64,000 bases of DNA from Elusimicrobia bacterium HGW-Elusimicrobia-2 (lineage in GTDB: Bacteria; CG03). Position 1 is the stretch's first letter, and each line of letters begins with the position of its first letter. The notes under the pieces are model-generated. The model was given only the letters and a program-made list of their open reading frames with translations, was not told the DNA's origin and searched no databases. Location: assembly GCA_002841685.1 (NCBI GenBank), contig PHAM01000001.1:7086-71085 (forward strand). The letters are read 5' to 3'. A program made the translations under genes and the position numbers. This document shows positions 13,288 to 57,271 of this stretch, piece after piece.

Positions 13288-14609
13288 ACTCTTCCCACTC
13301 CCCTGTAAAGAAATCCCAGTTTTTTCATTTTTGCGGGATCATAAAGATTCCTGCCGTCTATCAGAGCCGGCACCCTCATCAGCGATTTTACCTTTTTCAT
13401 ATCAGCTTTGGAAAACTCTTCCCATTCCGTCAGCAGCATGAGAGCGTCCGCTCCTTTGACGGCAGTCATGGCCTGAGCGTATTTGAGATTTTTCTCTTTC
13501 CCCAATATTTTTTTAAAACCGTCCATGGCGACAGGGTCATAAACACAGACCTGCGCGTTGAATTTAAGAAGTTCCCTGACGATATCTATGGCAGGGGCGT
13601 TGCGCAGATCATCCGTGTCCGGTTTGAAGGCGAGTCCCCAAACGGCGATCTTTTTCCCCTCTATGTTCCACACGATATCCTTGAGTTTGTCTATCACTGT
13701 CATACGCTGGCTCTCATTTATTCCGTAGACCTCTTTGAGCAGCTTGAAGTCTATACCCTCCTCGTGAGCCATATGGATGAAAGCCAGCACGTCTTTAGGA
13801 AAACACGAGCCCCCGAAACCTATCCCCGCGTCGAGAAAACGCCCGCCGATTCTTTTGTCGAGCCCCATGGCGAGAGAAATATCCTTTATGTCAGCGCCCA
13901 CCCTTTCGGCTATATTCGCCACGGCGTTTATGAAAGATATCTTTGTTGCGAGAAAAGAGTTGGACGCGTGTTTTATCAATTCCGAAGTTTCCGTGTTTGT
14001 CACTATCAGCGGCGCCTTAACCGGAGCGTAGATCCTGTGCATGAGCTCCTCGGCTTTTTTGCTCTCAACGCCTATGACGATCCTGTCGGGCTTGAGAAAA
14101 TCGCCTATGGCTTTCCCTTCCCTCAGAAACTCGGGATTGGATACAACGTCAAACGGAAGGTTTTTCTTATTGTATATTTTGACCGTCTGTTTTATTTTCT
14201 GACCGGTTGATGCGGGAACCGTGGATTTCTCAACAATAACTTTGTAACCGTTCATTGAGAGCGCCACCTCTCTGGAGACAGCCTCCACATACTGGAGATC
14301 GCATGAGCCGTCAGGGCGCGGAGGGGTGTTGACCGCTATGAAAATAGCATCCGATACAGGCACCGCTTTTTTCACGGAATCCGAGAATTTGAGCCGGCCG
14401 TTTTTCATGTTCTTCTTCAAGAGCTTATCAAGGCCGGGTTCATAGATGGGCATCAAACCTTTTTTCAGTTTCTTGATTTTCTCCTTATTGTTATCAACGC
14501 AGATGACACTGTGACCAATTTCGGCGAAACATATGCCGCTCACAAGGCCAACATAACCTGAACCGACAATGGCTATTCTCACACCCTTGGATGATCCTTT
14601 CTTTTTCAT
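13284..14609 (-). CDS. ugd: UDP-glucose 6-dehydrogenase
   Basis: N-terminal NAD-binding '[12 protein letters not shown]', catalytic Cys region 'GGSCFPKD'; 441 aa. Confidence 0.9.
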
Positions 14610-39589: not shown

Positions 39590-40118
39590 TTATATGTCTT
39601 TGTGAATTACTCTGCCTTCTTTTGTGCTGACATCAACGGAAGCTTTGTGGAGTATCCTGTCAAAATCAGCTATGACTTTCATTATCTCCTGCGAAGAAGA
39701 TGCCGCGAAAATTTTTTGCATCATGACATCGCTTTTCAGCAACCTCGCCGCGCGGGCCACCACCTGGATATATTCCCTGTTCAGGTCAGGCGGGGAGGCC
39801 ACCATAAAAACGGCGTGGACGGGTTTTCCATCAAGAGCGTTGAATTCCACTCCGTCCCTGACCATGCCCATAGCACAGAAGATCCTTTTGACACTTTCAT
39901 GCTTGGCATGCGGAATGGCTATTCCGCCGCCTATGGCCGTTGATTCGAGTTCCTCTCTCTCCCTGATGGCCTTTAAAAAAGTGTCTTTGTCCGACAAAAC
40001 CTTTTCGGCCGCGAGGCACTCTGTGAGCTCCGCCATAATGGCATTTTTATCATGCCCCTTCAATTCTATCACAACGGTCTTTTTACTTAAAACATCCTCT
40101 AAAAACACTTTATCTCCT
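39590..40118 (-). CDS. ptsN: PTS EIIA-Ntr-like regulatory protein (fructose-family IIA domain)
   Basis: 'STAIGGGIAIPHAK' phosphorylation-site region; start reassigned to GTG 40118 with GGAG RBS to avoid overlap with tRNA-Gly. Confidence 0.7.
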
Positions 40119-40149
40119 TGCTGACGCCGTAAATTCCAAACCAGATTTT

Positions 40150-40226
40150 TGGAGCGGGCGATGGGATTCGGACCCACGACCTCAACCTTGGCAAGGTTGC
40201 GTTCTAGCCAGCTGAACTACGCCCGC
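40150..40226 (-). tRNA. tRNA-Gly (anticodon GCC)
   Basis: Reverse complement: acceptor GCGGGCG, D-arm GTTCAGCTGGCTAGAAC, anticodon loop TTGCCAA, T-arm GTGGGTCCGAATCCCAT, encoded CCA. Confidence 0.85.
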
Positions 40227-40274: not shown

Positions 40275-41225
40275 TCAGTCTTTGACAATCCATGTGCCGG
40301 TCTTTCCGTCCATGGCTTCGCCTATTTTTTCCGGGCAGGTTATCAGGGCTTCCATGCCGCCGTTCTCAAAAAACTTGATTACCGCCTGTATCTTGGGAAG
40401 CATGCTGCCCTTGGCGAAATGACCTTCGTCCATATATTTTTTAGCTTCTGAGACTGTGATCCTGTCGAGCTGTTTCTGATCCGGCTTACCGAAATTAATA
40501 CAGACTTTTTCCACCGCCGTAGAGATGAGAAGAAGATCCGCCTTTATGTTGGAGGCCAGAAGAGCCGACGCGAAATCCTTATCTATCACAGCCGCGCAGC
40601 CTTTGATTATATTCTTCGCCTTATCATAGTACACCGGGATGCCGCCGCCGCCCACGGCCACAACAATGAAACCGCCTTTAACCAGCGTGGCTATCGCGTT
40701 TTCTTCAAGTATTTCTTTGGGTAAGGGCGACGGAACAACCCTTCTCCAGCCTCGTCCGGCGTCTTCCACTATATCCCAACCCTCTTTTTCCTTTCTTGTT
40801 TCAGCATCTTCTTTTGTCAGAAAAGGCCCGACCGGCTTTGAGGGATTCTGAAACGCGGGGTCTTCCTTATCCACAAGAACCCTTGTCACAACCGTTACGA
40901 CTTCTTTTTCAATGCCCCGTCGCCGGAACTCGTTTGAAAGCGCCTGCTGAAAATTATAACCTATAGAGCCCTGCGTATCGGCTCCGCAGGAGTCCATGGG
41001 AATCGGATGCAAACCTTCTTTTATCCCGGCCTCACTCCTTAAAAGCATAAAACCCACCTGAGGGCCGTTGCCGTGTGATATCACGACATTCCAGCCCCGC
41101 TCGATCATATTGGCTATGTGCTTCACCGTCTCGACGACGCACATATACTGGTCCGGCACGGATGAATGCGCCTTGTCTTTTATGAGCGAATTACCACCAA
41201 CGGCTACAACTGCTACTTTACTCAT
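40275..41225 (-). CDS. arcC: Carbamate kinase
   Basis: N-terminus 'KVAVVAVGGNSL' and 'VVISHGNGPQVG' typical of carbamate kinase; 316 aa. Confidence 0.9.
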   Translation of the reverse strand: MSKVAVVAVGGNSLIKDKAHSSVPDQYMCVVETVKHIANMIERGWNVVISHGNGPQVGFMLLRSEAGIKEGLHPIPMDSCGADTQGSIGYNFQQALSNEFRRRGIEKEVVTVVTRVLVDKEDPAFQNPSKPVGPFLTKEDAETRKEKEGWDIVEDAGRGWRRVVPSPLPKEILEENAIATLVKGGFIVVAVGGGGIPVYYDKAKNIIKGCAAVIDKDFASALLASNIKADLLLISTAVEKVCINFGKPDQKQLDRITVSEAKKYMDEGHFAKGSMLPKIQAVIKFFENGGMEALITCPEKIGEAMDGKTGTWIVKD

Positions 41226-41268
41226 TTGTTCCTCCTAAAATATACGCTTTCTGATTGTCCGGACGCGT

Positions 41269-42315
41269 TTAGAGTTTGTCCGACATTGTCAAAGCCATAA
41301 TGGCTTTCTGAACATGAAGCCGGTTTTCGGCGATATCCAAAACTATGCTCCGTGGCCCCTGATTCACTTCACGCGTGACCTCGGCACCCTCGTCGACAGG
41401 CATGGGGTGGATGAATTTCGCCCCGGGATTTGCGGTTTTCATTTTTTCTTCATCGCAGATCCAGTCTTTGTACTTATCACTTGCGGCGCGCTTTATCTCG
41501 GCCTCTTTGCCTATCTCATAGAAGTCTTTACCGAACCAGTTGCGCGAATAAACATAATCAGCGCCCTTATACGCGGCCCTCGGATCGCCTTTGACGATCT
41601 CAAAAGTGCCGCCGGCGGCTTCAGCGTTTTTCTTCGCCTGCTCGACTATGTTTGCGGGAAGCGAATAGTTATCGTCCGGATAAGCCAGTTTCACATTGAC
41701 GCCCAGACGGGAGTTCAGAAGAAGGCTTTCGTGCACGGAACAATAGCTGCGGGCAAGAGCCCCTTTCGCCCAGGTTTGGACAATAGTCTTGCCTTTGGTG
41801 GGCTGATTGTTGTTGTGCTCCCTCATCCCCATGATATCGGCAAGGCCCTGGCAGGGATGATAGATATCATCCGCCATGTTGATTATCGGCACATCCGCAT
41901 GCTTGGCATATTCCCTGAGGATCTTGTTGCCGTCGCCGTAATTGTCAACGGAAGTTTCAAGGATCCTTATTCCTATGCCCACGGCGAACCTCGCCATGAC
42001 CTTCGCGGCGTCGTGAATCGTCTCACCCGCTACCTCGACTCCCTTCTTGACGCTCTTGAGCCTCATTGCCTTCGGCTCGATGAACTGGGCGTGTCCGCCG
42101 AGTTCCGTCGCCGCGGCCTCGAAAGACTGCCTGGTTCTGAGCGAAGGGTTATAGAAGAACATTATAAATGTCCTGAACGCTAACATACTGTTGTACGGTT
42201 CCCCGTAACGGTTCGCCTTCATCTTCACGGCCAGAGACAGTATTTCTTCTATTTCCTCAACCGAAAGTTCCTGCGTGGTCACAACATCTTTACCAAACAT
42301 TTTTGATTTTGCCAT
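41269..42315 (-). CDS. YgeW-family-like carbamoyltransferase paralog (divergent; HCLP replaced by 'IHPMPV')
   Basis: 'NPSLRTRQSFE' carbamoyl-phosphate motif, 'HPCQGLAD', 'TWAKG', 'KDWICDEEKM' shared with YgeW-type transcarbamylases; lacks canonical DVWxSMG and HCLP. Confidence 0.65.
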   Translation of the reverse strand: MAKSKMFGKDVVTTQELSVEEIEEILSLAVKMKANRYGEPYNSMLAFRTFIMFFYNPSLRTRQSFEAAATELGGHAQFIEPKAMRLKSVKKGVEVAGETIHDAAKVMARFAVGIGIRILETSVDNYGDGNKILREYAKHADVPIINMADDIYHPCQGLADIMGMREHNNNQPTKGKTIVQTWAKGALARSYCSVHESLLLNSRLGVNVKLAYPDDNYSLPANIVEQAKKNAEAAGGTFEIVKGDPRAAYKGADYVYSRNWFGKDFYEIGKEAEIKRAASDKYKDWICDEEKMKTANPGAKFIHPMPVDEGAEVTREVNQGPRSIVLDIAENRLHVQKAIMALTMSDKL

Positions 42316-42338
42316 TTTATATCTCCTGAAATTCTGTT

Positions 42339-43358
42339 TTATCTCATTGTCAAAGCCATAATGGCCTTCTGGGCATGAAGCCTGTTTTCCGCCTCATCAT
42401 TCACTATGGAAATCTTCGGATCGTCAATAAGCGCGTCCGTAACTTCAAATTTCCTTCTGGCCGGCAGACAGTGCATATACACGGCGCTTTCATTGGCTTT
42501 CTCAAAATGCTTATGAGAAATACACCAGTCTTTTTTATAATTAGGCCCGACTTTGGCGTGCTTATCAGGGTCACGCGCCCATGATTTGGCGTATATGACA
42601 TCCGCGTCTTTAGACGCTTTCCATATATCATGCTCTATGTTGAGAGAGCCGCCGCTGACCGCTGCGGCTTTTTTGGCATAGTCAACATAATCCTGATCAA
42701 CATCATAAAGTCCCGGCTCATCCGGATAAGCCAAAGTTATGTTCATTCCCAGAGCGCAGCCCGCGGATATCATCGTCTGCGGAACGCCCGCCGATTTTGC
42801 TCTCTCGTCATAAGCCCATGACATAACAATTTTCTTTCTTCTGACAGATTCCATTCCGCCGAACTTTTCTATCATCGTCAGAATATCGCCCATGATCTGG
42901 CAGGGATGTTCCTTGTCATCCAGCATATTGATGATCGGCACTTTTGAGAATTCCGCAAGACCTCTCAACACTTCGCGGGCATCGCCATACGCATAGGTTT
43001 CCGCACCCATCTGAGCTTTAAGATTATACAGCCGGATAGCAAAACCGTCCAGAAACCTTGATATCATCTCGGCCGTGTCTTTCCACGATTCCTTATGGGA
43101 AAGCTGAAGTTCCTCGGGGCTATATGTCTGTCCATTTCCTCCGAGCTGGGAAATACCGCTTGAAAACGAGAGCCTCGTCCTCGTTGACGGCGAAGCAAAA
43201 AGCATACCAAGATTTTTGCCGGCGAGAAGATGCTTCTGGCTTTCGCCGATGGCATTTCTCAATTTCAAATCCCTCGCGACCTCAAGTATGGTTTCAAGCT
43301 CCTCCTTACTAAAGTCCCTCACGCTGATAAAATCTCTACCCTTAAGGTTAGTGATCAT
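42339..43358 (-). CDS. YgeW-family transcarbamylase (unknown-substrate carbamoyltransferase)
   Basis: 'SPSTRTRLSF', 'HPCQIMGD', 'KKIVMSWAYDERAKSAGVPQ...MNITLAYPDEPGLYDV...DADVIYAKSWA...KDWCISHKHF...VYMHCLPA' matches E. coli YgeW block by block (recalled from memory); lacks OTC 'DVWxSMG'. Confidence 0.7.
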   Translation of the reverse strand: MITNLKGRDFISVRDFSKEELETILEVARDLKLRNAIGESQKHLLAGKNLGMLFASPSTRTRLSFSSGISQLGGNGQTYSPEELQLSHKESWKDTAEMISRFLDGFAIRLYNLKAQMGAETYAYGDAREVLRGLAEFSKVPIINMLDDKEHPCQIMGDILTMIEKFGGMESVRRKKIVMSWAYDERAKSAGVPQTMISAGCALGMNITLAYPDEPGLYDVDQDYVDYAKKAAAVSGGSLNIEHDIWKASKDADVIYAKSWARDPDKHAKVGPNYKKDWCISHKHFEKANESAVYMHCLPARRKFEVTDALIDDPKISIVNDEAENRLHAQKAIMALTMR

Positions 43359-43393
43359 AATAATCCTCCTTTTATTTCTTTCCTTTAAAACCC

Positions 43394-44617
43394 TTAAAAC
43401 ATATTTTTAAGCCATTCAATAAGGCCTTTTCTGCGTTTGCGGTGGCCGGGGGCGGTCAGCGACGGAGATTCCTTGCTCACATCGTATTTGAGCAGACCCA
43501 GGACAGATGTCCATGAAACATCGTCCACAACAGCCGCGTCGCCCGCGCAATTGGCGGGGTAGCCCAGCCGCGTCTGAAAACCGAGCTCCGCGCGCACATA
43601 ATCCTCCATCCCCGGCAGTTTGGCTCCGCCGCCGACAAGAATACAGCTCGGCACGAGATCAGGATTGATCTTCATAGCCTCAAGTTTTCCTTTGATGCCG
43701 CTCTTGCCGAAAATATCCGCCAGACGCCCGCTTATTATTTCCGATATATCTTTAAGGCTCACCTCGTCCTTGGTCCTGCCGTCGATCCTTGTGACCTCTA
43801 TTTTGCCTTCTTTGGGTATGTGCGCCTGTGTGGCGAAACCGAAATCCTCTTTGATCCTGGCCGCTTCGAGGCGCGAAGATTTTATCTCCCTCGCTATATC
43901 GTTGGTTATGTAATCGCTGCCGTTGCGGATCGCGAAAAAGCCTCTTATCCCGCCTTTATTAAAATAGGATGTTTCGCAAAGGCTGCCGCCTATGTCTATG
44001 AGTATGCAGCCGAGAGCTGTTTCATCGTCAAGAAGAACAAGTTCCGCGGCGGCCAGTGACGAGAGGATGGTGTTCTGTATCTCAAAACCCGCCTTCTCCA
44101 CGCATTTCCTTATATTGGTCAGCATTGACGCTTTGGCGATAATATTATGCACATTCACCTGAAGATGTTTCGCCGCCATACCCTTGGGATTCATTATCCC
44201 CCTCTGATTATCCACCATATACTCAAGGGGTATCGTGTGTATTATCTCATCCTCGGAATTCGGTATGCTGCTTCGCGCGGCCTGGAGCACCTGTTTCACC
44301 TCGTTGAAGCTCACCTCCTGGTCCTGAGACATGACCGCTATGGCGGCGTGATGATCCAGGCTTGATATGTGCATGCCGTGCACGCCGAGTGAAACGTAAT
44401 TAATATTGGTTTGCGCCTTGTCTTCAGCGCTTTCTATGACTTCTCTTATGGATTCGACAGTCTGGGGAATATCTATGATGATTCCCTCTCTTATGCCTTT
44501 GCAGGGCCTGGAATCATAGCCGAGAACTTTTATCTGCTCACCGACGACATCGCCTATCACGCATTTGATGTGCGACGACCCTATTTCAAGTCCGGCCCTG
44601 ATGCTTTCACCTGTCAT
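43394..44617 (-). CDS. ftsA: Cell division protein FtsA
   Basis: Actin-like ATPase motifs 'GLEIGSSHIKCVIG', 'ILIDIGGSLCETSYF', 'VLVGGGAKLPGM'; 407 aa. Confidence 0.9.
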   Translation of the reverse strand: MTGESIRAGLEIGSSHIKCVIGDVVGEQIKVLGYDSRPCKGIREGIIIDIPQTVESIREVIESAEDKAQTNINYVSLGVHGMHISSLDHHAAIAVMSQDQEVSFNEVKQVLQAARSSIPNSEDEIIHTIPLEYMVDNQRGIMNPKGMAAKHLQVNVHNIIAKASMLTNIRKCVEKAGFEIQNTILSSLAAAELVLLDDETALGCILIDIGGSLCETSYFNKGGIRGFFAIRNGSDYITNDIAREIKSSRLEAARIKEDFGFATQAHIPKEGKIEVTRIDGRTKDEVSLKDISEIISGRLADIFGKSGIKGKLEAMKINPDLVPSCILVGGGAKLPGMEDYVRAELGFQTRLGYPANCAGDAAVVDDVSWTSVLGLLKYDVSKESPSLTAPGHRKRRKGLIEWLKNMF

Positions 44618-45384
44618 TTATTATTTTCAACTCCTTTATGAAATTTTATAATAGCACTTCGCATTTTTTTTGTAAATGGGCGCAAATCTATGTACTGGAT
44701 CTTCCGGCCTTTTGACGCGGCGTCTTTTATAACTTTGCCCACAGACTCCACTTTTTCCCGGACAAGTTCCCGTTCGGGACTGCCGAATAGAACCGCGCAA
44801 TCGGCCATATTCATTTTAAGCGATTCCCCCTCCATTGAAAAAGAAATTATAGCCTCGTAGAAATTGTTTTCCGTATCCCGGATATCTTTTAAAAACGCCA
44901 TGATCTCATCGCGCCGCCCGGATGCCGCCTCATTGTAATCGCTCCACAGCGGGATCTTGTATTTTTGTTCGGCGGCAGAAACGCTCCTGACGATCTTATC
45001 GTCTAATGTAATGATAAATTTCCGGCTTTCCCTCATAAACATGGCCGCGGGAATACGCTCTTTGATCTTCACGATTATCTTTCCGGGCAAAACCCTTCTT
45101 ATCTTCGCTCTGTCTATCCACTGTTCTTTCAGGAACAGATCCTCATCCAGTTTGTAGCTGAAAATATTGGCTCCGGTTTTCATGTCTATGAGTTTCTTCA
45201 CGTAATCTTCATTGAGCACCGACAATCCCCGTATCTCTATTTTCGTGACATTGAGCTTATCCCAGCCGAGCAAAAAATTGTAACAGAAATGCGCGGCCGT
45301 GCCCAGAGCGAACAGGAAAAACAGCGCGAAAAGAATTTTAAAGCCGTTGCCCTTTTTTTTCTTTTTGCGGGGGCGCTTCTTCAT
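44614..45384 (-). CDS. ftsQ: Cell division protein FtsQ/DivIB
   Basis: Basic N-terminus, single TM, POTRA-like region; position between ddl and ftsA. Confidence 0.7.
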   Translation of the reverse strand: MKKRPRKKKKKGNGFKILFALFFLFALGTAAHFCYNFLLGWDKLNVTKIEIRGLSVLNEDYVKKLIDMKTGANIFSYKLDEDLFLKEQWIDRAKIRRVLPGKIIVKIKERIPAAMFMRESRKFIITLDDKIVRSVSAAEQKYKIPLWSDYNEAASGRRDEIMAFLKDIRDTENNFYEAIISFSMEGESLKMNMADCAVLFGSPERELVREKVESVGKVIKDAASKGRKIQYIDLRPFTKKMRSAIIKFHKGVENNK

Positions 45385-46316
45385 CTTTTGAGAGAATCTT
45401 TTATTATAGCCGCCACAGTTTCATCAAAGCTTATCCCGACAGCGGCGGCCGCCTCCGGCAAAAGGCTCGTCTCCGTCATCCCCGGAATAGTGTTTATTTC
45501 AAGGGCGTAAAAAATCCCTGCCTCGGACCTTATAAAATCCACACGGGCGGCGCCTTTTATGCCTAGAGCCCCGCAGACTTTCAGAGTGTCCCTGCCCAGA
45601 GCCGCGGATGATTTTCTGTCTATCAGCGCCGGCACAATATGAGCGCTCATGCCCGGAGCGTATTTTGCTTCGTAGTCGTAATATTTGTTTTTCGGCACTA
45701 TTTCCAAAACGGGAAGAACTTTCCCCGCAAGATACCCGACTGTAAACTCACGGCCTTTGATGTATTTTTCCGCCAAAATTTCATTGTCGCGCGCAAAAGC
45801 TTTATCAATTGCTTTCTTTATGCTTCCACGGCCTGTAACAATAGACAACCCCTCTGAAGAACCTTCTGAAGACGGTTTTATCACAACCGGCAGGAGGCGC
45901 GCGACTCTGTCAATTATATTTTTTTCGCCCCTGACAATTTTTATGCCGGGCGGTGTCTTTATGCCCTCGGCGGTAAAAATAGTTTTTGTAAGCGCTTTAT
46001 TCATACAGACGGCGGATGCGGGAACACCCGAACCGCTGTAAGGAAAGCCCATTATTTCAAGCAGGCTTTGAAGCCTGCCGTCTTCACCCCATGCCCCGTG
46101 GCAGGCTATGAAATAAAAATCCGCCCGGGCTGATTTAATTTTTGAGACCATATCGCCGCGACCTATGTCAACAATACGGCTTTTGAAAGCCAGCCGTTTC
46201 AGCGCCCCGTTGACAGCCGAGGCCGTTTTGAGCGATATCTCCCTCTCGCTCTTTGAAAGTCCCGCGAGCACCGCTATTTTTTTAATACCTGCTAGCTTTA
46301 TTTTTTTATTCTTCAA
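45381..46316 (-). CDS. ddl: D-alanine--D-alanine ligase
   Basis: ATP-grasp Ddl pattern 'FIACHGAWGEDGRLQSLLE', 'EGSSEG', C-terminal 'EINTIPGMTETSLLP'. Confidence 0.9.
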   Translation of the reverse strand: MKNKKIKLAGIKKIAVLAGLSKSEREISLKTASAVNGALKRLAFKSRIVDIGRGDMVSKIKSARADFYFIACHGAWGEDGRLQSLLEIMGFPYSGSGVPASAVCMNKALTKTIFTAEGIKTPPGIKIVRGEKNIIDRVARLLPVVIKPSSEGSSEGLSIVTGRGSIKKAIDKAFARDNEILAEKYIKGREFTVGYLAGKVLPVLEIVPKNKYYDYEAKYAPGMSAHIVPALIDRKSSAALGRDTLKVCGALGIKGAARVDFIRSEAGIFYALEINTIPGMTETSLLPEAAAAVGISFDETVAAIIKDSLKR

Positions 46317-46409
46317 CTTTTCACTCCTTCCTTAGCCCTGACTATAGAAAACATTTTCATTTTTTTCCACCGCCTCGCTGACAAATATCTCATATTTTTC
46401 ATATCCCTG

Positions 46410-46823
46410 CTAAAAAGTATCAGAACCGTCACCATACTTTTCCCTTGTGAATGTTGTTTTTCCTGTTATTTTGCCAAGGATAATATCGGCTTTTCTGCAA
46501 AGCATAACAAATTCTTCTTGCTCAAATCCGCTATGTTTCAAATTGTTATATATTCGGTGCCGTATCTCTACATATTCTTTGGATAACCTGATTGATTTAT
46601 CTCGATCCGAACTTGTTGGAAGTTGTTTGCTTAGACGATAGAGTTTTTTTGCAGCAACATAGCTTGCGTGTGCAATTTGAACACATTGCCAATTTAAGAC
46701 TTTATTAGGAGAACGAAGCGAAATAAAGACCGACTCCTGTAAGAAGTCCTTGATACGGCAGCACAAATCAAAAAAACCTACAAATGCTAAAATGCTTCCA
46801 ATTATCTGAATTGGTGATATCAT
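46410..46823 (-). CDS. Hypothetical membrane-anchored protein, translationally coupled to the type IIG RM gene
   Basis: 137 aa, hydrophobic N-terminus 'IQIIGSILAFVGFF', start 1 nt after RM gene stop; no recognisable domain. Confidence 0.45.
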   Translation of the reverse strand: MISPIQIIGSILAFVGFFDLCCRIKDFLQESVFISLRSPNKVLNWQCVQIAHASYVAAKKLYRLSKQLPTSSDRDKSIRLSKEYVEIRHRIYNNLKHSGFEQEEFVMLCRKADIILGKITGKTTFTREKYGDGSDTF

Positions 46824-46824
46824 T

Positions 46825-49800
46825 TCATTTAATCGGCCATTGGGGGGTGGTTTGGTCGATTTCGGTCATCAGGCGGGAGGTTTCTTTCAGCACAACTACT
46901 ATTTTCTGCCAGTGCAGAACTTCGTCAAATGTCAGGAAACGGCCTTTTCTGCTTTTCAGCCATTTGTCCAAAACCTGATAGCCGCCGATATAGAAATTCC
47001 AGACTGCTGGTTCTATTCCTTCAAAATACTGTTCTTTGTTGATATAAATTCTTTTTGTTTTTTCTTCGTAATTTACTTTCACGACTTCGTTTTTTCCGGA
47101 AATCGGAAATCTTGTGATGAGTTTTTCCAGTGCAGGTGATTCCATCAGGTGAAGTGAGACAAGTTCCTTTCCTTTTTTAACAAGGTTTTTGAAACGTTCC
47201 CTGTCGGAAGTCAAAGGCGCACGGGGAAAATCTATTTTCAAAAATTCGGCATATCTTTTTCTGTATTCCGGCGAATGAAAGACCGCATAGATGTAATAGA
47301 AAATATCTTCGGGGCCGAATGTCTTTTTTAAATCCCCCTGGCCGTCTAAAACAAAATCAAGTTTCAGTTTCCCGCTGACTTCCCTGACAAACTCCGGCTT
47401 AATATTCGGCTGACGCTTTGATTCTGTCTCGTTCTGTTTCTCATCAGGATAAAGATACAACGGAAAAATATATCCTCTTTCTTTCGTTTTATTTGACACA
47501 TAACAGTCATCTGTAATACTGTTTGTCGCTAAAATATGCCGCCAATTATTTCCTGATAATTGACGACATAAGTACAATGCAACATTATTCCCAAAAAGCA
47601 TATGACGCATAACTTTTTCCCTTACACGCCAAACAACTGTTGGATGATAATAAATATTCCTTGTATCAAACGGTCGATATAGCAATTTATCAAAATAATC
47701 TTTCCAATTTTCAACACTTGTTAATTCTGCTCGCGCTTTTGATACTCTCCACGCATAATTTTCTGATAACTTAAACTTTTCTTTTATTTCTATATCGCTG
47801 AAAGTTTTGTCTCTGAAACATTCTATTCTTTCTTTTAACGGTTCCTTTTCAAAATCAATTACGAATTTATCTCGCGCAGTAACAATGCCTGTGCAGTTTA
47901 CCGGAAAAATATCTGTGATTTTCCAGTATTTTTCGTATTCACTTCGTCCTTCTTCGTTTCTTGGAATAAAGAAGTAATATGGACTATTGGGGCTGAGTTC
48001 TTTATAATTTGTTTTATTAATATCGTTTTCTGAAAGAATTTCATATTTACTATCCCTCGTCCCCCACAAATCTGCATAATAAATTTTTGCCGGGCCTTCG
48101 GCTTTCTGTTTTTTTACGAATAAATTTATTGCAACACCCTGCTGTATGTCAAAAACATTTTCGTCTTTTGTGCCGTCGGGACATTTCTCCTTTTTCTTCG
48201 CATTGCCGTGCAGATTGAGAATATATATTTCCGAAAATGTATTGAGCAAAGACTGTCTCATTCCACGGAATGTGGGATTATCAAGGTAAGCGTGATTTGT
48301 TATTATTCCCACAACGCCCTGGCCTGTCCTGTCAATCTTCCACTGCGCGAAGCGGATGAACTTCACATAATCGTCCTGTAACCAGACTTTTCTCTCGTTC
48401 AAAGGTTTACCGTCAATGAATTTATAATCGTCTATTAGTTTTGTTATCCATTTTCCCATATTCGCGGATATACCGGAATAGGGGGGATTGCCGAGGATTG
48501 CCATTATCGGCACTTCGTTTTTTACTCTTGCGGCCTGGGCGGATTCTTCGGCTATGAACTGCGCGAATAGAGGCAGGTCTTTGTGCTCTGCTTCGCTTAG
48601 AGTGTTTGTGAGATAAATTCCAAGACGCTGGTCTGAATCAAATTTGTAGCCGGTCTCCTGCAGGAGGAGTCCGAGTTTCAAATGAGCGACCGTATAAGGC
48701 GCCATCAGAAGTTCAAATCCGAAGACTCTTTTCAGGAGATGCTCCGCTACATATTCGTCCCACACTCCCTTTTGTCCGTCTTTTTCCATCTTGTCATAGA
48801 TCAGTTTTATGACAGAGTACAGGAATGTTCCCGTTCCGCAGGCAGGGTCAAGAATAAATGTCTTTGAGTCCGCAAGCCCCTGCGGCCGTCTGAAACTCTT
48901 CTTAAGAATACTGTCAAGAGAACGGACAATGAATGAGACCACAGGTTCCGGCGTGTAGTAAACCCCGCGGGATTCCCTGAGCTTGGAGTCATAGGCGGCA
49001 AGAAATGTCTCGTAAAAATGGACGACAGGGTCTTCTTTCTTTGTCTTTACCCCGAAATCCTTTAAAATCTCCTTGATGTCGGATACGGAAAGAAGCTGGG
49101 CGAGGTCGTCAACAAGCCAAGCAATCCTGTCGTCAAGGTCGGGGCCTGCGATGTGGTTGAAAAGTTTCCTTAAGAACGGGTTTGTCTTTGGAAGGAGAAA
49201 AGCCGAGTGCTCACGGGTAAATTCTTTTTCGTCCGGCATATTGCACCGCGCCGCAAACAATCCGTAGGCGATTGTCTGGCTGTATAAATCGGCAAAGCTT
49301 TCCTGCCTTAAGCCCTGAATCAGTATTTCACGAAAGGCTTCATACTGGGAATGGAGAGTCCCTTTTTCCTGCTCTTTTTCAAAAGCCGCATTTATCAAAT
49401 CCCGGATCATTTGGGTTATCTGAGCCATACGCACCGCAAGTTTTTTAGGGCTTTTTATTTTTTCAGGAAGGACACAGAGAAAAGATTGGATAATTTTAAT
49501 AAACTGATCTTCATTCCTGTGCAGTAGGTTGACCTTCCCGGAAGAATCACACTCCCCTATGATTACGGTTTCCGCTCTTTCCCCGTTTACGTAGCGTCGG
49601 AATTCAAGATAATCAGTCAGTATTAAATTTGATAATGATGTGCGGTATCTTTTTAACTGCTCTGATTTTTCTATCTCGTCCAGACTCTTGCCTATGTCTT
49701 TCGTTTCAATATATCCAACCGTCAGTTTTTTCTTTGTGATGATAAAATCCGGAGCGCCGCAAGCGACTCTCTTGGGTTCGTTTATGGCAGAAATCCCGGC

Positions 49801-49914
49801 TTCAAAAGATTCAATCAATGTTTTCAGCGCCGGGCGATATGTATGCTCGCCCGCCTGGCCTGTCTTAAGGTTTTTCTGTATCTCCGATAAGTAGTTTTTT
49901 ATGTTAGCTGTCAT
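46825..49914 (-). CDS. MmeI-family single-polypeptide type IIG/IIL restriction-modification enzyme (endonuclease + N6-adenine methyltransferase + TRD)
   Basis: N-terminal PD-(D/E)xK 'PDFII...YIETKDIGKSLD' (cf. MmeI 'IEMKSRGKDLD'), SAM motif I 'DPACGTGTFL' (MmeI 'DPACGCGNFL'), catalytic 'ILGNPPYSG'; 1029 aa. Confidence 0.85.
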   Translation of the reverse strand: MTANIKNYLSEIQKNLKTGQAGEHTYRPALKTLIESFEAGISAINEPKRVACGAPDFIITKKKLTVGYIETKDIGKSLDEIEKSEQLKRYRTSLSNLILTDYLEFRRYVNGERAETVIIGECDSSGKVNLLHRNEDQFIKIIQSFLCVLPEKIKSPKKLAVRMAQITQMIRDLINAAFEKEQEKGTLHSQYEAFREILIQGLRQESFADLYSQTIAYGLFAARCNMPDEKEFTREHSAFLLPKTNPFLRKLFNHIAGPDLDDRIAWLVDDLAQLLSVSDIKEILKDFGVKTKKEDPVVHFYETFLAAYDSKLRESRGVYYTPEPVVSFIVRSLDSILKKSFRRPQGLADSKTFILDPACGTGTFLYSVIKLIYDKMEKDGQKGVWDEYVAEHLLKRVFGFELLMAPYTVAHLKLGLLLQETGYKFDSDQRLGIYLTNTLSEAEHKDLPLFAQFIAEESAQAARVKNEVPIMAILGNPPYSGISANMGKWITKLIDDYKFIDGKPLNERKVWLQDDYVKFIRFAQWKIDRTGQGVVGIITNHAYLDNPTFRGMRQSLLNTFSEIYILNLHGNAKKKEKCPDGTKDENVFDIQQGVAINLFVKKQKAEGPAKIYYADLWGTRDSKYEILSENDINKTNYKELSPNSPYYFFIPRNEEGRSEYEKYWKITDIFPVNCTGIVTARDKFVIDFEKEPLKERIECFRDKTFSDIEIKEKFKLSENYAWRVSKARAELTSVENWKDYFDKLLYRPFDTRNIYYHPTVVWRVREKVMRHMLFGNNVALYLCRQLSGNNWRHILATNSITDDCYVSNKTKERGYIFPLYLYPDEKQNETESKRQPNIKPEFVREVSGKLKLDFVLDGQGDLKKTFGPEDIFYYIYAVFHSPEYRKRYAEFLKIDFPRAPLTSDRERFKNLVKKGKELVSLHLMESPALEKLITRFPISGKNEVVKVNYEEKTKRIYINKEQYFEGIEPAVWNFYIGGYQVLDKWLKSRKGRFLTFDEVLHWQKIVVVLKETSRLMTEIDQTTPQWPIK

Positions 49915-50135
49915 CTCTGAAATAGCGCCATATTTAATATTTCACATTTGCAAAATTAATTCTGTATTTCATTCTCGTCTTAAAAATGCCATCATCCTTT
50001 TAATATTTTTTTATTCGTTTGTATAGAAGTTTCAAGGATAGGTGTTTAAACGCTTGTATTATAAGCATTTAAGATTCCTCATCTTCGTTCGGAATGACAT
50101 GTTTAATGCTTTTTGGAGTAGACTCATTATTAAAT

Positions 50136-50999
50136 TTATTTATCATTTTCCGACATAGTAAACTTCAATTCGGCTGTGATAACATTGTTATCGTCAATTA
50201 TATTTTTTTCCATGCTTGTTTTTTCTTCTATTGCCAAAATTACTTTTTTGATTCTTTTTACATTACCCGTCCCAATACCATGAACCTTAATATAATCAAT
50301 CCCATATTTTAACCTTGTCAATATCTCCTTTTCAATATCTTCTTCCTTCATTTCAAAGCTCACAAACACTGAGCACGGCAAATCATCGACATAGGGATCG
50401 TATAAGCTAAGAAACTTTGTTTTAATTTTGTCTTCCGTCGTATATATTTTGGATAATGCTTCATACATTTCCTTAAAGTCTTTTTCATAATATCCTGCTG
50501 TGCATAAATTTGTAATATTAGCGCCTCTCTTGCCATACTTGTCCCGAATATCCCTCTTCATATCCCTCACTTCCTGATTTCTGTGTTCCAAAAATACCTT
50601 CTTGATATACATAGCTTGCCTGAGTATTATTAAATCTACTGAGGAAATTTTATTTTGGTAAAATTTTAATATTGCTTGAACATCCGGCTCCGAATCCTTC
50701 TTTTTTATATCTTCAGCCCAATCGTTGTCTTTTGTTGTAAGAAAAATAGGTTCACCTTTAACTGATTCCTTGGCGCTGTCCTTTAAAAGAGTATTTAAAA
50801 TATTTCTGTCGTCCTGACTAAGCTTTTCAGGATTAATAATCGTTTTGCCATTTTCTGACATAACGCTTTGACTGCTTTGACAGTTAATCACAACGTTGCA
50901 ATTATTAAAAGTATTGCCGTCGCCTTTTTGGATGCTATCTGCTATTTTTGCATCAACATTGTTAGTGATGAGGCCTTTGAAAAATTCTTTCCAACCCAC
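50136..50999 (-). CDS. Hypothetical protein (island cargo); weak Smr-like 'HG(K/I)GTG' motif near C-terminus
   Basis: 287 aa, AT-rich codon usage, C-terminal 'IDYIKVHGIGTGNVKRIKKVIL' loosely resembles second Smr-domain motif; overlaps upstream small ORF (ATGA). Confidence 0.45.
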   Translation of the reverse strand: MGWKEFFKGLITNNVDAKIADSIQKGDGNTFNNCNVVINCQSSQSVMSENGKTIINPEKLSQDDRNILNTLLKDSAKESVKGEPIFLTTKDNDWAEDIKKKDSEPDVQAILKFYQNKISSVDLIILRQAMYIKKVFLEHRNQEVRDMKRDIRDKYGKRGANITNLCTAGYYEKDFKEMYEALSKIYTTEDKIKTKFLSLYDPYVDDLPCSVFVSFEMKEEDIEKEILTRLKYGIDYIKVHGIGTGNVKRIKKVILAIEEKTSMEKNIIDDNNVITAELKFTMSENDK

Positions 51000-51244
51000 T
51001 ATTTGTTGCGAGTTGCCACTTTAAAAATTGATGGCAAATCTGATTTTATAAACAATTCTGACCCTTTTTGTACCCCCGCAAAATCATCCAGCAATAACTC
51101 TTCTCCATCCGGGGTTAAAACTCTTTGCGCGAGGTTATCTGTTTCAACTACATATCCGTCTGCATCAACTGTTTTACCAAATATTTTTAAAATAAATTCT
51201 TTCGTTTTTTGATCTTCTCTAAAAGTGATAACTTCTTCACTCAT
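50999..51244 (-). CDS. Hypothetical small acidic protein (island cargo)
   Basis: ~81 aa from ATG 51244 (AAAGGAG RBS 6 nt upstream); coupled to downstream 287-aa ORF. Confidence 0.4.
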   Translation of the reverse strand: MSEEVITFREDQKTKEFILKIFGKTVDADGYVVETDNLAQRVLTPDGEELLLDDFAGVQKGSELFIKSDLPSIFKVATRNK

Positions 51245-51377
51245 TGTCATCTCCTTTATTTTTCATATCGCCCTTTCATCATCATAATTGTTCATTTATA
51301 CCAATTTGTAAAAGCCATGTAAAGCCCCATGATGAGTCCACCCCGATTGTCAGGATAAATTTCAGCAAAATGAACTT

Positions 51378-52226
51378 TCATTTTCCGAATCTTCCCCAGA
51401 ACTCGACGAGAGTCTCCAGATAAACGCCTTGCGCCTCATAAACCCTCGCGCGAATCCTGCTCATCAGTTCATAAGCGTCGTCGGCAGGCCTCCCGCCCCG
51501 CAAAACAAAAACATTCGCGTGAAGAGGCGAGACAGAAACGCCGCCCGCGCGCCAGCGCGAACAGCCGCATTGCTCGATGAGTTTGCCCGCCGGTATCCCT
51601 GCGGGATTCCTGAATATGCACCCGCTCCCGTTCTTGTATATAAAACCTTTTTCCTTTCTTTTTGCCGTCAGCTCTTTTATCCTGTCAATTATTTTTTTCC
51701 CGGCTTTTTTCCTCAGCGAAAAACAGGCTTCCAATATAACGGCGGGGATTGGAACGGGCCCCGTCCTGTAAGAAGCTTTTATCATCCCGCCCGAGATCCT
51801 GTATTCCCTCCCCGAACGGTAAAACCTGAGCCATTTGAGGACATCACTTATGGCACTTCCGAAAGCACCGGCGTTTTTAAAAACAGCCCCCCCGACGGAG
51901 GCGGGAATCCCCGAAAGGTTTTCCAGGCCGCAAAGCCCCGCCGCGGCGCTTTTTTTTATCACATCTTTCAGCCCGGCGCCGGCCCCGGCGATAACATCGT
52001 TGCCTTTGAGCTTAATTTTTTTGAAATCCCCGTCGAGCATGAGCGCCGGTTCGGTTAAACCCGCGGAAGAAATAATGACATTGGAGCCGTTTCCCAAAAC
52101 CCTGAAAGTGTGGAACTGCTCCGTAAAAGCCTTAAGTTCAGCGACGGTGGTGGCCTGCCACACATGAGCCGGGCCGCCCGAGGCAAGATAAGTAATATCC
52201 CTCAGATTAATAAAGCTAACTTCCAT
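51378..52226 (-). CDS. murB: UDP-N-acetylenolpyruvoylglucosamine reductase
   Basis: FAD-binding 'FRVLGNGSNVI', 'LENLSGIPASVGGAVFKNAGAFG'; 282 aa. Confidence 0.9.
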   Translation of the reverse strand: MEVSFINLRDITYLASGGPAHVWQATTVAELKAFTEQFHTFRVLGNGSNVIISSAGLTEPALMLDGDFKKIKLKGNDVIAGAGAGLKDVIKKSAAAGLCGLENLSGIPASVGGAVFKNAGAFGSAISDVLKWLRFYRSGREYRISGGMIKASYRTGPVPIPAVILEACFSLRKKAGKKIIDRIKELTAKRKEKGFIYKNGSGCIFRNPAGIPAGKLIEQCGCSRWRAGGVSVSPLHANVFVLRGGRPADDAYELMSRIRARVYEAQGVYLETLVEFWGRFGK

Positions 52227-55127: not shown

Positions 55128-56330
55128 TCAGTCCTCCCAGTTTTCAATCAGATAATTTTTGTTTTCCTCAAAGATCCCGGCCTGCCGCCCCACAGCTTCG
55201 TCAACGCCGAGCTGCTCGCATTCTTTCAGAAAAGAATCCAGCCGGGCGTAATAAAAAGGCGTGATCAGCCCGACGAGCTTGAAACGGTCTTTTTTCCAGC
55301 GGTGGTAAATGCAGGCAAAATCATAGACGATCCTCGTCCACAGATCGGCGGAAAACATTTTGGAAGCATTGGCCTTTTTAAGCGAAGCGAAAGTGCTCTG
55401 CCGCAAAATGTCCTTCCATATCTTCATGAGATTCACGGATGAGGCCATGTATCTTTCAAAATAATCGTCGTTCCCGATGGCGAGCTTCGGGGGCGTCACT
55501 TCGTACGGCGCGTTGACAAAGGGGATGTCGCGGCTTCCCTTGACCATCTCCCATTTGTGGCAGTATCTTTCCATCAGCTTGAAACTTGTGCTGAGCACCT
55601 GGCGGAACATCGGACCCAACTGGTCGGGGCGGCGGCTGTCATGATCCTTGACGCCGAGAAAGCACTGCCCCGTGCGGAAAGACTCATTGGCCGCTATTGT
55701 CGTCATCCATATATCTATGCCGAATCTTGACACGTTGTTGTCCCAGTAAGCCCAGTCAAGGAAATACCTCACAAGAGGAGCCCTCATGCCGAAATCCCCT
55801 CCTATGGGCTGCCGCAGGCGCTGGCCATAAAGGGCTCTCGTCAAAGGATATGTTATCAGGTTTGTTATCGTGCCGTCCCTGTAATCCCTGACATAGTAAG
55901 GCGTGATGAAATCAAATTCTCCCGCCAGCAGCGGAGTGCCGAGATCCCTCAGCCATTCGGGGTTTATGCTTTTCAGATCAGCGTCAAAGAGCATCAGCAC
56001 CTTTGCTTTGAGGATACGCGCGGCTTCCATGATCGCCCTTAAAGCCATCCCCTTCCCAGCGAGTCCCCTGTATGTCGTGCACACCTTTTCGGATGAGGCG
56101 CTCTTGAATTTATCAAAAGCTATGTCCAGCGTGCTGTCGGTGGAATTACCGTCTGAGACCATTATAACGGACTTTGACTTCGGGAAATATTTGGACAGTC
56201 CCTTATCTACGGTTTTGAGGACACCGAGTATGGTCTTCTCATTGTTGAAAGACGGTATGCCGACAAGTATATCAACATGCTTCATCGTATGGAGCTGTTG
56301 ATGTATATTCGATCCTAAGCTGGACTTCAT
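55128..56330 (-). CDS. Family 2 glycosyltransferase
   Basis: GT-A fold N-terminus 'ILVGIPSFNNEKTI...VIMVSDGNSTDST', DxD-like 'LFDADLK'; 400 aa. Confidence 0.6.
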   Translation of the reverse strand: MKSSLGSNIHQQLHTMKHVDILVGIPSFNNEKTILGVLKTVDKGLSKYFPKSKSVIMVSDGNSTDSTLDIAFDKFKSASSEKVCTTYRGLAGKGMALRAIMEAARILKAKVLMLFDADLKSINPEWLRDLGTPLLAGEFDFITPYYVRDYRDGTITNLITYPLTRALYGQRLRQPIGGDFGMRAPLVRYFLDWAYWDNNVSRFGIDIWMTTIAANESFRTGQCFLGVKDHDSRRPDQLGPMFRQVLSTSFKLMERYCHKWEMVKGSRDIPFVNAPYEVTPPKLAIGNDDYFERYMASSVNLMKIWKDILRQSTFASLKKANASKMFSADLWTRIVYDFACIYHRWKKDRFKLVGLITPFYYARLDSFLKECEQLGVDEAVGRQAGIFEENKNYLIENWED

Positions 56331-57271
56331 TTAAGGCCCCTCAGAAGAAAATGCAGTATCGCCTTCTGGAGATGCATCCTGTTGTGCGCCTGCGCGAACA
56401 CTATAGAGTTGGAAGAGTCCATCACCTCGTCGGTGAGTTCCTGTCCCCTGCGCGCAGGAAGACAATGCATCACGGACACATTTGCCGAAGCCTTGTCCAG
56501 CAGTTCTCTGTTCACCTGATACCTGCCGAAAAGTTTTTTTCTCTCCGCCTCTTCACCCTCATCGCCCATACTGGCCCACACATCGGTGTAAATAAATTCG
56601 GCGTCTTTCATGTATCCGGGGTCTATCTCGCTGGACGAATAAATGCCCTGATTCACTTTTTTGACAGCTTCAAATTCAGACTCGTCAAACATGAATTTCT
56701 CAGGACAGATAATTCCGAATCTGTATCTGATTATTCCCGAAAGGTTGAGAAGTGACCGGCTCACATTGTTGGAGTCCCCCACGAATACCAGTTTGACTTT
56801 GCTGAAGTCGAAATCAAGAACGCTTTTTTCATCCAGCCCCTTTTTCTCACAGACCGTGAAAATATCCGCCAGCGCCTGACAGGGATGGAAGGATTTTGAA
56901 AGGCCGTTTATCACCGGCACGGAACTGTATTTCGCCAGGCCCTGCACATCTGAATCGCTCGTCGAGCGTATCATTATTACATCCACATAACCGGAAAGAG
57001 TTTGAGCCGTGTCGCCCACTGTTTCTCCGCGTGAAAGCTGCAGCTCGTTTCCGGAAAGATTTATAGCCCTTCCGCCGAGCTGATACATTCCCGCCTCAAA
57101 AGATACCCTTGTCCTCGTGGAGGGCTTCTGGAATATCATGGCCAGGATTTTTCCCTTCAGCGCGCCGGCATATTCACTCTGATTTTTCTTTATCCTGAAA
57201 GCGAGCGCGAAAAGTTCCCGCACCTCGTTTTCGCTAAGATCCGTCACCTCAACAATATCTCTTTTTTTCAT
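56327..57271 (-). CDS. argF: Ornithine carbamoyltransferase (canonical)
   Basis: 'STRTRVSFE', 'HPCQALAD', 'DVWASMG', 'HCLPARRG' canonical OTCase motifs; 314 aa. Confidence 0.85.
   Translation of the reverse strand: MKKRDIVEVTDLSENEVRELFALAFRIKKNQSEYAGALKGKILAMIFQKPSTRTRVSFEAGMYQLGGRAINLSGNELQLSRGETVGDTAQTLSGYVDVIMIRSTSDSDVQGLAKYSSVPVINGLSKSFHPCQALADIFTVCEKKGLDEKSVLDFDFSKVKLVFVGDSNNVSRSLLNLSGIIRYRFGIICPEKFMFDESEFEAVKKVNQGIYSSSEIDPGYMKDAEFIYTDVWASMGDEGEEAERKKLFGRYQVNRELLDKASANVSVMHCLPARRGQELTDEVMDSSNSIVFAQAHNRMHLQKAILHFLLRGLK

Follow-up and report, generated by a model that had tools for sequence, protein, structure and literature searches.

Two distinct transcarbamylases and a carbamate kinase beside ftsA in an Elusimicrobia bacterium: a putative ureide-phosphorolysing cassette with a widespread core

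A 64,000-nucleotide stretch of the genome of the Elusimicrobia bacterium HGW-Elusimicrobia-2 (GenBank assembly GCA_002841685.1, contig PHAM01000001.1, positions 7,086 to 71,085), called here the window, encodes on its minus strand a cassette of two transcarbamylases and a carbamate kinase (CK), located directly after ftsA and before a tRNA-Gly gene. The three open reading frames (ORFs) are TC1 (42339..43358, 339 aa, Pfam OTCace_N and OTCace), TC2 (41269..42315, 348 aa, both Pfam transcarbamylase domains) and CK (40275..41225, 316 aa, NCBIfam arcC model), and the ORF list and ARAGORN confirm the positions and order reported in a first-pass annotation made from the sequence alone. As judged from models, alignments and trees, TC1 and TC2 appear to be two distinct uncharacterised clades, sister to ornithine transcarbamylases (OTCs) and to N-acetylornithine transcarbamylases (AOTCs), respectively. 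The cassette probably belongs to a widespread, unannotated variant of the catabolic transcarbamylase plus carbamate kinase system. The whole cassette may be a catabolic module phosphorolysing ureides and yielding ATP, in which TC1 and TC2 would take both ureido groups of 2,3-diureidopropionate; this reading, its general form included, is held with moderate confidence.

Both transcarbamylases score below the cut-off of every NCBIfam transcarbamylase model. The best model for TC1 is that of OTC (NF001986, 251.5 bits vs 306; TIGR00658, 245.9 vs 280.85), on which TC2 reaches 211.5 and 191.8 bits, and the best one for TC2 is that of AOTC (NF003384, 233.0 vs 288), on which TC1 reaches 223.7. The YgeW models NF005538 and TIGR03316 (cut-offs 453 and 500) give 161.1 and 158.7 bits for TC1 and 106.3 and 98.3 for TC2, with alignments spanning residues 3-261 of TC1 and 3-309 of TC2, and the true YgeW of a related locus (L004), taken as positive control, scores 620 and 592 bits. 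With the putrescine carbamoyltransferase model TIGR04384 (cut-off 500), the scores are 215.6 and 192.9, respectively. By BLASTP, TC1 is 32% identical to Escherichia coli YgeW, 31% to the OTC encoded elsewhere in the window and 36% to TC2. The best solved relatives by sequence are the Pyrococcus furiosus OTC for TC1 (201 bits, 36% identity) and the Xanthomonas AOTC for TC2 (184 bits), and structural models point the same way. Indeed, the AF2 models (pLDDT 92.3 for TC1 and 93.2 for TC2) have as top fold matches in the PDB the P. furiosus OTC 1a1s (TM 0.85/0.92) and the AOTC 3kzk (TM 0.86/0.90), respectively, and the top 50 matches of each model include no YgeW structure. In the alignment, both enzymes are also devoid of the N-terminal, C-terminal and 240's-loop insertions of YgeW, a protein of about 396 aa.

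The phylogeny, inferred throughout by neighbour-joining, was built mainly on 41 representatives with 200 bootstraps, and a tree of 153 sequences agrees with it in topology. TC1, TC2 and YgeW are each monophyletic in 200/200 replicates. TC1 groups with OTCs in 152/200 and TC2 with AOTCs in 109/200, whereas TC1 groups with YgeW in 0/200, with TC2 in 2/200 and with YgeW plus the mini-YgeW proteins described below in 1/200. These supports imply that TC1 and TC2 belong neither to the YgeW family nor to a recent tandem duplication, and that they represent two old, distinct clades. In such a tree, proposed as a check in the first-pass annotation, TC1 stands beside the OTCs and TC2 beside the AOTCs, and neither enters the YgeW clade. 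The "YgeW-family" label is thus lost on model score, length, fold neighbours and phylogeny alike, and the "tandem paralogs", at 36% identity, turn out to be members of different ancient clades. Independent transcarbamylase clades of unknown function had already been noted in a 2015 review of the family (PMC4581275).

The residue table of the same review served as the basis for comparing the active sites. In the alignment, the full set of carbamoyl-phosphate-binding residues is retained in both enzymes: S58-T-R-T-R62, R109 of beta4, H151/Q154, H296-C-L-P and the C-terminal R326 in TC1, and S58-L-R-T-R62, R117 of beta4, H153/Q156, H303-P-M-P and the C-terminal R332 in TC2. The signature motifs are STRTR (FASPSTRT), HPCQ, HCLP (MHCLPA) and YAKSW in TC1, and SLRTR (FYNPSLRT), HPCQ, HPMP (IHPMPV) in place of HxLP, and YSRNW in TC2. 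The motifs of catalytically competent members of the superfamily (Fx[EKNDAQ]xSxRT, HPxQ, HxLP and the beta4 Arg) are present in both, TC2 having Met for Leu in HxLP.

The second-substrate side is different from those of ornithine and putrescine enzymes. The DxxxSMG motif is missing from both proteins, replaced by DVIYAKSWARD in TC1 and by DYVYSRNWFGK in TC2, an absence already seen in the first-pass annotation together with IHPMPV. Both have an insertion after beta6 of the AOTC/YgeW type (SWAYDERAKSAGVPQ in TC1), equal to the AOTC/YgeW loop in length and not proline-rich, and a 240's loop opening with xxSW or xxNW, within an xKSW or xRNW motif. In the knotted transcarbamylases (AOTC, SOTC and YgeW), a proline-rich loop at this place and the 240's region together make a trefoil knot. 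The blocks that TC1 shares with YgeW (xxWAY...K..xVPQ, KDW and MHCLPA) do align, yet they are common to this wider group. At the positions of YgeW K203 and K270, both enzymes have basic residues (K188/K258 for TC1 and R189/R258 for TC2); in knotted transcarbamylases these positions anchor the substrate carboxylate (PMC4581275), and this fits an acidic ureido substrate rather than ornithine or putrescine. The equivalents of YgeW Q160, S200 and D124 differ in TC1 and TC2, the alignment near Q160 being uncertain by one residue. At the positions of AOTC E144, K252, W77 and carboxylated K302, TC2 has A148, R258, L86 and E312 and TC1 has L146, K258, L86 and E305. Inspection of the substrate loops in the alignment thus finds the ornithine- and putrescine-binding residues absent from both enzymes.

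The change from HCLP to HPMP in TC2, the absence of ftsZ after ftsA and the short blocks shared with YgeW had led to the view that the cassette encodes a pair of YgeW-family paralogs, of which one would be catalytic and the other altered (a regulatory subunit or pseudo-enzyme), together a new energy pathway that takes the place of ftsZ. As HxLP works via main-chain atoms (PMC4581275), HPMP is not a sign of inactivation. It occurs in 62 of 69 TC2-clade sequences, Thorarchaeota versions having HCGP. Relative to two related loci (L010 and L009), dN/dS is 0.059 for TC1, about 0.02 for TC2 and 0.04-0.06 for CK, with 0.03-0.05 for ftsA. All three cassette genes are intact and under strong purifying selection, TC2 being the most constrained. 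A degenerate TC2 is therefore rejected on dN/dS, on conserved motifs and on its place in the constant core of the cassette, and the notion of an "altered" partner does not survive either, its carbamoyl-phosphate residues being intact. Given in addition the YgeW scores of 161 and 106 bits vs 453, the bootstrap values, the fold matches and an ftsA adjacency confined to one lineage, this first view is very improbable.

The kinase passes the NCBIfam models TIGR00746 arcC (399.8 vs 358.25) and PRK12352 (425.5 vs 266) and is 49% identical to E. coli YqeA, which identifies it as a bona fide carbamate kinase. In some Elusimicrobia-type loci, the standard CK is replaced after TC2 by a divergent protein of the amino-acid-kinase family of about 360 aa (L090:12259-13341, and also L020, L026 and L072), 37-40% identical to the window CK and with a faint Pfam AA_kinase match.

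A transcarbamylase is paired with a carbamate kinase in the reductive (2,8-dioxopurine) pathway of uric acid degradation, established in gut bacteria by two 2025 studies and a commentary. In this pathway, uric acid is converted to 2,8-dioxopurine by XdhD/XdhAC, YgfK dearomatises the ring and HyuA opens a hydantoin to give 2,3-diureidopropionate. YgeW then phosphorolyses one of the two ureido groups, which one being disputed, and YqeA turns the carbamoyl phosphate into ATP, while YgeY hydrolyses the second ureido group and YgeX converts 2,3-diaminopropionate into pyruvate. The statement that the substrate of YgeW is still not defined is consequently out of date. One of the two studies scored gene neighbourhoods by PF00185 alone as "YgeW", and in neither is there any mention of transcarbamylases in tandem, of TC2-like enzymes or of the ThrC-like and CysK-like partners met below.

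Two further uncharacterised groups, defined here from related loci, come close to YgeW. TCx is a clade of about 350 aa carrying the second-substrate residues of YgeW without its extra helices. Mini-YgeW proteins (L094-L104, metagenome contigs) are about 325 aa long, also lack the extra helices and group with YgeW in 188/200 bootstraps; their motifs are NMQCDIYHP, SWAYAxSYxKPxSVPQ, YPKSW and HxLPAD. The second-substrate residues of both, E/Q160, S200, K203, K270 and HCLPAD, make a near-complete YgeW set. Mini-YgeW genes neighbour those for YgeY-like M20 peptidases, CK, HyuA-like enzymes, adenine deaminase, Bmp and the same pyridoxal phosphate (PLP) enzymes and amidohydrolases as in TC2 loci.

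Searching the species genomes of GTDB with an alignment of TC2 yielded 80 loci, 68 of them with a TC2-clade gene, and neighbours were typed by BLAST against a purpose-built reference set; as many contigs are truncated, the co-occurrence percentages are lower bounds. The nearest GTDB relatives of the window are metagenome-assembled genomes (MAGs) of Elusimicrobiota, and the 68 loci span Elusimicrobiota, Cloacimonadota, Chloroflexota/Anaerolineae, Caldisericales, Eisenbacteria, Myxococcales, Marinimicrobia and Asgard archaea. Homologues of TC1 and TC2 are also numerous in metagenomes, where the named ones are mostly annotated as "ornithine carbamoyltransferase" and a few TC2 as "N-acetylornithine carbamoyltransferase". 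A metagenome scan with a TC1 alignment, the patterns of which were too generic, returned mostly ordinary OTCs and was useful only for L093 and L094-L104. CK adjoins TC2 in 71% of the 68 loci and another transcarbamylase stands directly upstream in 47%, namely TCx in 27 loci, TC1 in four and true YgeW in one (L011). TC2 and CK thus constitute a conserved core across phyla, and the position upstream of TC2 is variable. Even within one tight TC2 subclade the partner varies, being TC1 (window, L010 and L004), TCx (L009 and Cloacimonadota) or YgeW (L011), a free exchange that is expected if TC1, TCx and YgeW do equivalent jobs.

In Asgard MAGs (Thor-, Hod-, Hermod-, Heimdall- and Promethearchaeota), TC2-clade genes are found at L021, L022, L025, L028, L035 and L036 and further at L042, L054, L059, L060, L066 and L067. 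The Hod-, Hermod- and Heimdallarchaeota loci have the order CK-TC2, with a HyuA-like gene near two of them, and the Thorarchaeota genes, with HCGP, have no adjacent kinase.

The neighbourhoods are most informative in the 26 loci with at least 7 kb of DNA on both sides. A ThrC-like and/or a 488-aa CysK/CBS-like PLP enzyme is encoded in 65% of them, Xdh, YgfK or SsnA in 31% and a Bmp-type nucleoside ABC transporter in 23%; one or more partners associated with the catabolism of purines or nucleosides are present in 77%. YgeX occurs in none of the 26, and no arg gene is among the recurrent neighbour families of TC2 loci. In a close relative, L004, whose TC1 is 77% identical to that of the window, the cluster reads M20 (YgeY-like), Xdh, Xdh, CysK-like, true YgeW, TC1, TC2 and CK, then ThrC-like, YgfK, true SsnA and true YgeX. 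The Cloacimonadota-type locus L008 has the order SsnA, YgfK, TCx, TC2, CK, CysK-like, ThrC-like, Xdh. Five loci (L008, L013, L023, L045 and L070) associate Xdh and YgfK (and SsnA in L008 and L023) with TCx-TC2-CK and both PLP enzymes, and no YgeW, YgeX, HyuA-like or M20 gene is present in their flanking DNA examined. In L011 the order is M20, YgeW, TC2, CK, ThrC-like, CysK-like. L002 includes three amidohydrolases, one of them adenine deaminase, a metallo-beta-lactamase-fold protein, TC1, TC2, CK, a nucleoside transporter and a ThrC-like gene, and L006 has ThrC-like, PALP and M20 genes at some distance from TC1, TC2, CK and a HyuA-like enzyme. Other relatives keep the cassette either in such purine-catabolic clusters or in unrelated housekeeping contexts, as in L090, where TC1, TC2 and the kinase lie amid housekeeping genes.

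Regarding the PLP enzymes themselves (L004:7074-8546 and 13193-14440, L008:10023-11489 and 11493-12755, and many other loci), the CysK/CBS-like protein of 488-490 aa has N- and C-terminal extensions and scores below all curated cut-offs, and the ThrC-like protein passes the thrC model and begins with a Cys-rich stretch resembling a zinc ribbon. No specific function for either emerged from solved structures or curated families.

These contexts suggest the following scheme. By phosphorolysis, TC1 and TC2 would each release a ureido (N-carbamoyl) group from a ureido compound that bears a carboxylate, giving carbamoyl phosphate, from which CK would make ATP, CO2 and NH3 with ADP. The likeliest substrates would be the ureido acids of an anaerobic, reductive purine degradation of the 2,8-dioxopurine type. 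TC1 would have the role of YgeW in E. coli and make the first cut of 2,3-diureidopropionate. The second ureido group would fall to TC2, where E. coli relies on the amidase YgeY to hydrolyse it. Two carbamoyl phosphates, and hence two ATP per purine instead of one, could be obtained. In the organism of the window, the upstream enzymes would be encoded elsewhere or the ureides taken up. We infer here the catabolic direction, the identity of the substrate and the order of the two cuts. The scheme is favoured by the experimentally established coupling of YgeW and YqeA to ATP formation and by the YgeW second-substrate residues of TCx and mini-YgeW. The earlier suggestion of an uncharacterised transcarbamylase and carbamate kinase module, of the kind yielding carbamoyl phosphate and ATP from ureido compounds, is likewise retained as probable from the sequence. 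As a more specific but tentative possibility, TC2 may have a new specificity and remove, with a YgeW-type partner (here TC1), both ureido groups, the product going to the ThrC-like/CysK-like pair and not to YgeY and YgeX.

Several observations weigh against this scheme. As noticed from the start, the usual partners are absent, and across the 64-kb window none of hydantoinase, 2,3-diaminopropionate ammonia-lyase, M20 peptidase, Xdh, YgfK and SsnA is encoded. About one quarter of the well-flanked TC2 loci stand alone in housekeeping contexts, where the neighbours of TC2-CK provide no functional clue. The case for purines thus depends on gene association elsewhere, in other genomes. Most variant clusters have no recognisable hydantoinase, so that the intermediate may not be 2,3-diureidopropionate. 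L004 and L011 keep a YgeY-like M20 peptidase, and L004 also YgeW and YgeX, which means that TC2 is not simply a replacement of YgeY there. An upstream transcarbamylase and an M20 peptidase tend to exclude each other, as expected, but the trend does not reach significance (Fisher p = 0.28). TC2-CK pairs often lack a second transcarbamylase, hence TC2 need not follow another one. In the literature, no paper was found that characterises the TC1, TC2 or TCx clades or any assayed member of them.

Part of this evidence would suit a scavenging role, in which TC1 and TC2 work in parallel, each on a ureido compound of its own, imported or made elsewhere, and share one CK for ATP formation. Candidate compounds would be N-carbamoyl-beta-alanine from pyrimidines, N-carbamoyl amino acids, allantoate or ureidoglycine and citrulline-like compounds. 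The many TC2-CK loci devoid of a second transcarbamylase, some of them in housekeeping contexts, and the lack of purine genes in the window are in line with such a role, as are the lone TC1-like genes (L001, L005, L091 and L092; L007 has a lone TC2-like gene) and one genome in which a TC1-like and a TC2-like gene lie about 175 kb apart. The free swapping in the upstream slot would also be expected if the slot only adds a second substrate range. However, the occupants of this slot are YgeW or enzymes whose substrate residues resemble those of YgeW, and the informative contexts point to purine or nucleoside catabolism and not to pyrimidine, arginine or polyamine genes. Independent scavenging of this kind is considered rather unlikely. 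A single neighbourhood (L005:7311-11008) has a lone TC1-like gene divergent beside an agmatine deiminase (PAD_porph) and an N-carbamoylputrescine amidase-like CN_hydrolase; this sole polyamine hint for the TC1 clade may be due to chance.

A carbamate-kinase-like enzyme of Pyrococcus works as a carbamoyl-phosphate synthetase. By analogy, the cassette could be anabolic, with the kinase making carbamoyl phosphate and TC1 and TC2 carbamoylating amino compounds, in a variant arginine route proceeding, for example, through an acylated ornithine, or in the synthesis of a ureido metabolite. The sister position of TC1 to OTCs, with the P. furiosus OTC as best solved relative, that of TC2 to the biosynthetic AOTC and the stand-alone cassettes amid housekeeping genes, Asgard archaea included, are compatible with this. 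Yet the window already encodes a canonical OTC (56327..57271, minus strand), recognised as such in the first-pass annotation and passing both OTC models (PRK00779, 364.9 vs 306; TIGR00658, 335.8 vs 280.85). In addition, the residues binding ornithine or acetylornithine are missing (DxxxSMG; E144, W77 and K302 of AOTC), the recurrent neighbour families include no arginine gene, and the genes that do recur nearby are catabolic (Xdh, YgfK, SsnA, adenine deaminase and the nucleoside ABC transporter). An anabolic cassette is thus improbable, and the phosphorolytic scheme remains preferred.

The place of the cassette after ftsA has a history of its own. This arrangement is found only in the window, L009, L010 and L093, with a DNA identity of about 82-85% for L009 and L010. 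L010 is syntenic with the window from an HD-GYP gene through birA, and L009 additionally keeps the downstream tRNA and EIIA gene. In L009, ftsA is followed by an intact TCx, 40% identical to TC1, and by a TC2 96% identical to that of the window. In L010 (8334-8927) and L093 (1136-1733), a region of about 600 bp between ftsA and TC1 contains a 5' fragment of TCx of about 122 codons, 91-95% identical to the N-terminus of the L009 TCx and frameshifted in L093; this fragment is missing from the window. The remnant in two loci and the intact gene in the third imply the ancestral order ftsA-TCx-TC2-CK. TC1 thus displaced TCx in situ, the window being the tidied end-state in which the remnant has been lost.

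The remark that the cassette sits where ftsZ would be expected is right to the extent that the ddl-ftsQ-ftsA block is present without ftsZ after ftsA and that the signature GGGTG[STA]G is absent from every frame of the 64-kb window, as it is from the DNA examined of L009, L010 and L093. The position itself is a matter of lineage-specific synteny, and no functional link to cell division was found; as the ftsA adjacency is limited to these four loci, a role in cell division or as a replacement of ftsZ is rejected.

On the minus strand, ftsA (43394..44617; NCBIfam ftsA 296 vs 175.85, and Pfam) is the last gene of the ddl (45381-46316), ftsQ (44614-45384), ftsA block and forms the upstream boundary of the cassette. 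It is separated from TC1 by a spacer of 35 bp (43359..43393, minus strand) that includes the TC1 ribosome-binding site AAGGAGG, and the gaps between TC1 and TC2 and between TC2 and CK are 23 and 43 bp, respectively. No terminator-like site is predicted between ftsA and TC1, and promoter and terminator scans around the cassette were uninformative. No riboswitch or other RNA element that could name a ligand was found in the window and seven related loci. The downstream boundary is the tRNA-Gly(GCC) gene (40150..40226, minus strand; ARAGORN, and 65.3 bits with the Rfam tRNA model), past which a PTS-EIIA/PtsN-like gene, nadC and a birA-like gene follow on the same strand. The PTS-EIIA/PtsN-like ORF (39590-40177) begins at a GTG and overlaps the tRNA by 28 nt, and its true start is probably further downstream. 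On the other side, compared with the collinear L010, the window has an extra insertion of about 3.7 kb (46410-49914) between orf287 and ddl, which encodes a Type ISP restriction-modification enzyme (1029 aa) and a 137-aa ORF. In 2-kb windows, the G+C content is 0.39-0.43 over 46001-52000 vs 0.47-0.53 in neighbouring windows, and the insertion is probably a recently acquired island within the division and cell-wall cluster. The remainder of the 64 kb includes envelope and polysaccharide genes, TPR and Wzy proteins, a restriction-modification enzyme, murB and dnaE.

The 2025 pathway is known with one transcarbamylase (YgeW) and one amidase (YgeY), whereas an alternative downstream module made of TC2 and CK, a swappable second transcarbamylase and two PLP enzymes is conserved here in dozens of uncultured anaerobic lineages. 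If the proposed scheme is true, it would represent an undescribed and widespread branch of anaerobic purine fermentation with a doubled ATP yield for the reductive pathway, showing a way for anaerobes to obtain a second ATP from each purine, with TC2-CK occurring also in Asgard archaea. Functions would be assigned to three orphan transcarbamylase clades, and metabolic reconstructions that read TC1- and TC2-type genes as arginine metabolism would be corrected. These enzymes may also help to decide which of the two ureido groups the known pathway cleaves first.

Among characterised systems, the cassette resembles the YgeW and YqeA pair of E. coli and Clostridium sporogenes. Both place a catabolic transcarbamylase, predicted as such here, beside a carbamate kinase close to YqeA; the basic residues at K203 and K270 and the extended post-beta6 loop (WAY...K..VPQ) are shared with YgeW, cassettes of relatives are embedded in Xdh/YgfK/SsnA clusters, and YgeW itself can fill the slot upstream of TC2. 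Unlike YgeW, TC1 and TC2 are about 50 residues shorter, without its N- and C-terminal helices and the two-helix insertion of its 240's loop, and at 31-32% identity they stay far under the cut-offs and outside its clade. The pathway differs as well, with two transcarbamylases instead of one, and most variant clusters have no YgeX, the M20 and HyuA-like genes being usually absent and ThrC-like and CysK-like enzymes found instead. TCx and mini-YgeW resemble TC1 in their place, upstream of TC2-CK for the former and beside M20 and CK for the latter, whereas TC1 keeps only two basic positions of the near-complete YgeW second-substrate set and groups with OTCs.

The AOTC of Xanthomonas campestris (3kzc/3kzk) shares with TC2 the xxSW at the start of the 240's loop, the loop insertion and an SxRTR motif whose second residue is not Thr. 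It is distinguished from TC2 by the substitutions A148, R258, E312 and L86, by HPMP for HCLP, by a model score of 233 vs the cut-off of 288 and by the genetic context, as the recurrent neighbour of TC2 is CK and none of its recurrent neighbour families belongs to arginine biosynthesis. The P. furiosus OTC (1a1s/1pvv) has in common with TC1 the STRTR, HPCQ and HCLP motifs and Q85 in the 80's loop. In contrast to OTCs, TC1 is devoid of DxxxSMG, of the Lys of FxKxSxRT and of the GDxxNN segment, stays below the OTC cut-offs, and has YAKSW and a post-beta6 insertion at the position of the "proline-rich loop" of knotted enzymes; moreover, the true OTC of this organism is encoded separately. Finally, the arginine and agmatine deiminase pathways follow the energetic logic proposed here, in which phosphorolysis of a ureido group gives carbamoyl phosphate and CK makes ATP from it, whereas no deiminase or antiporter gene lies beside the cassette and the residues that bind ornithine or putrescine in those pathways are replaced in TC1 and TC2.

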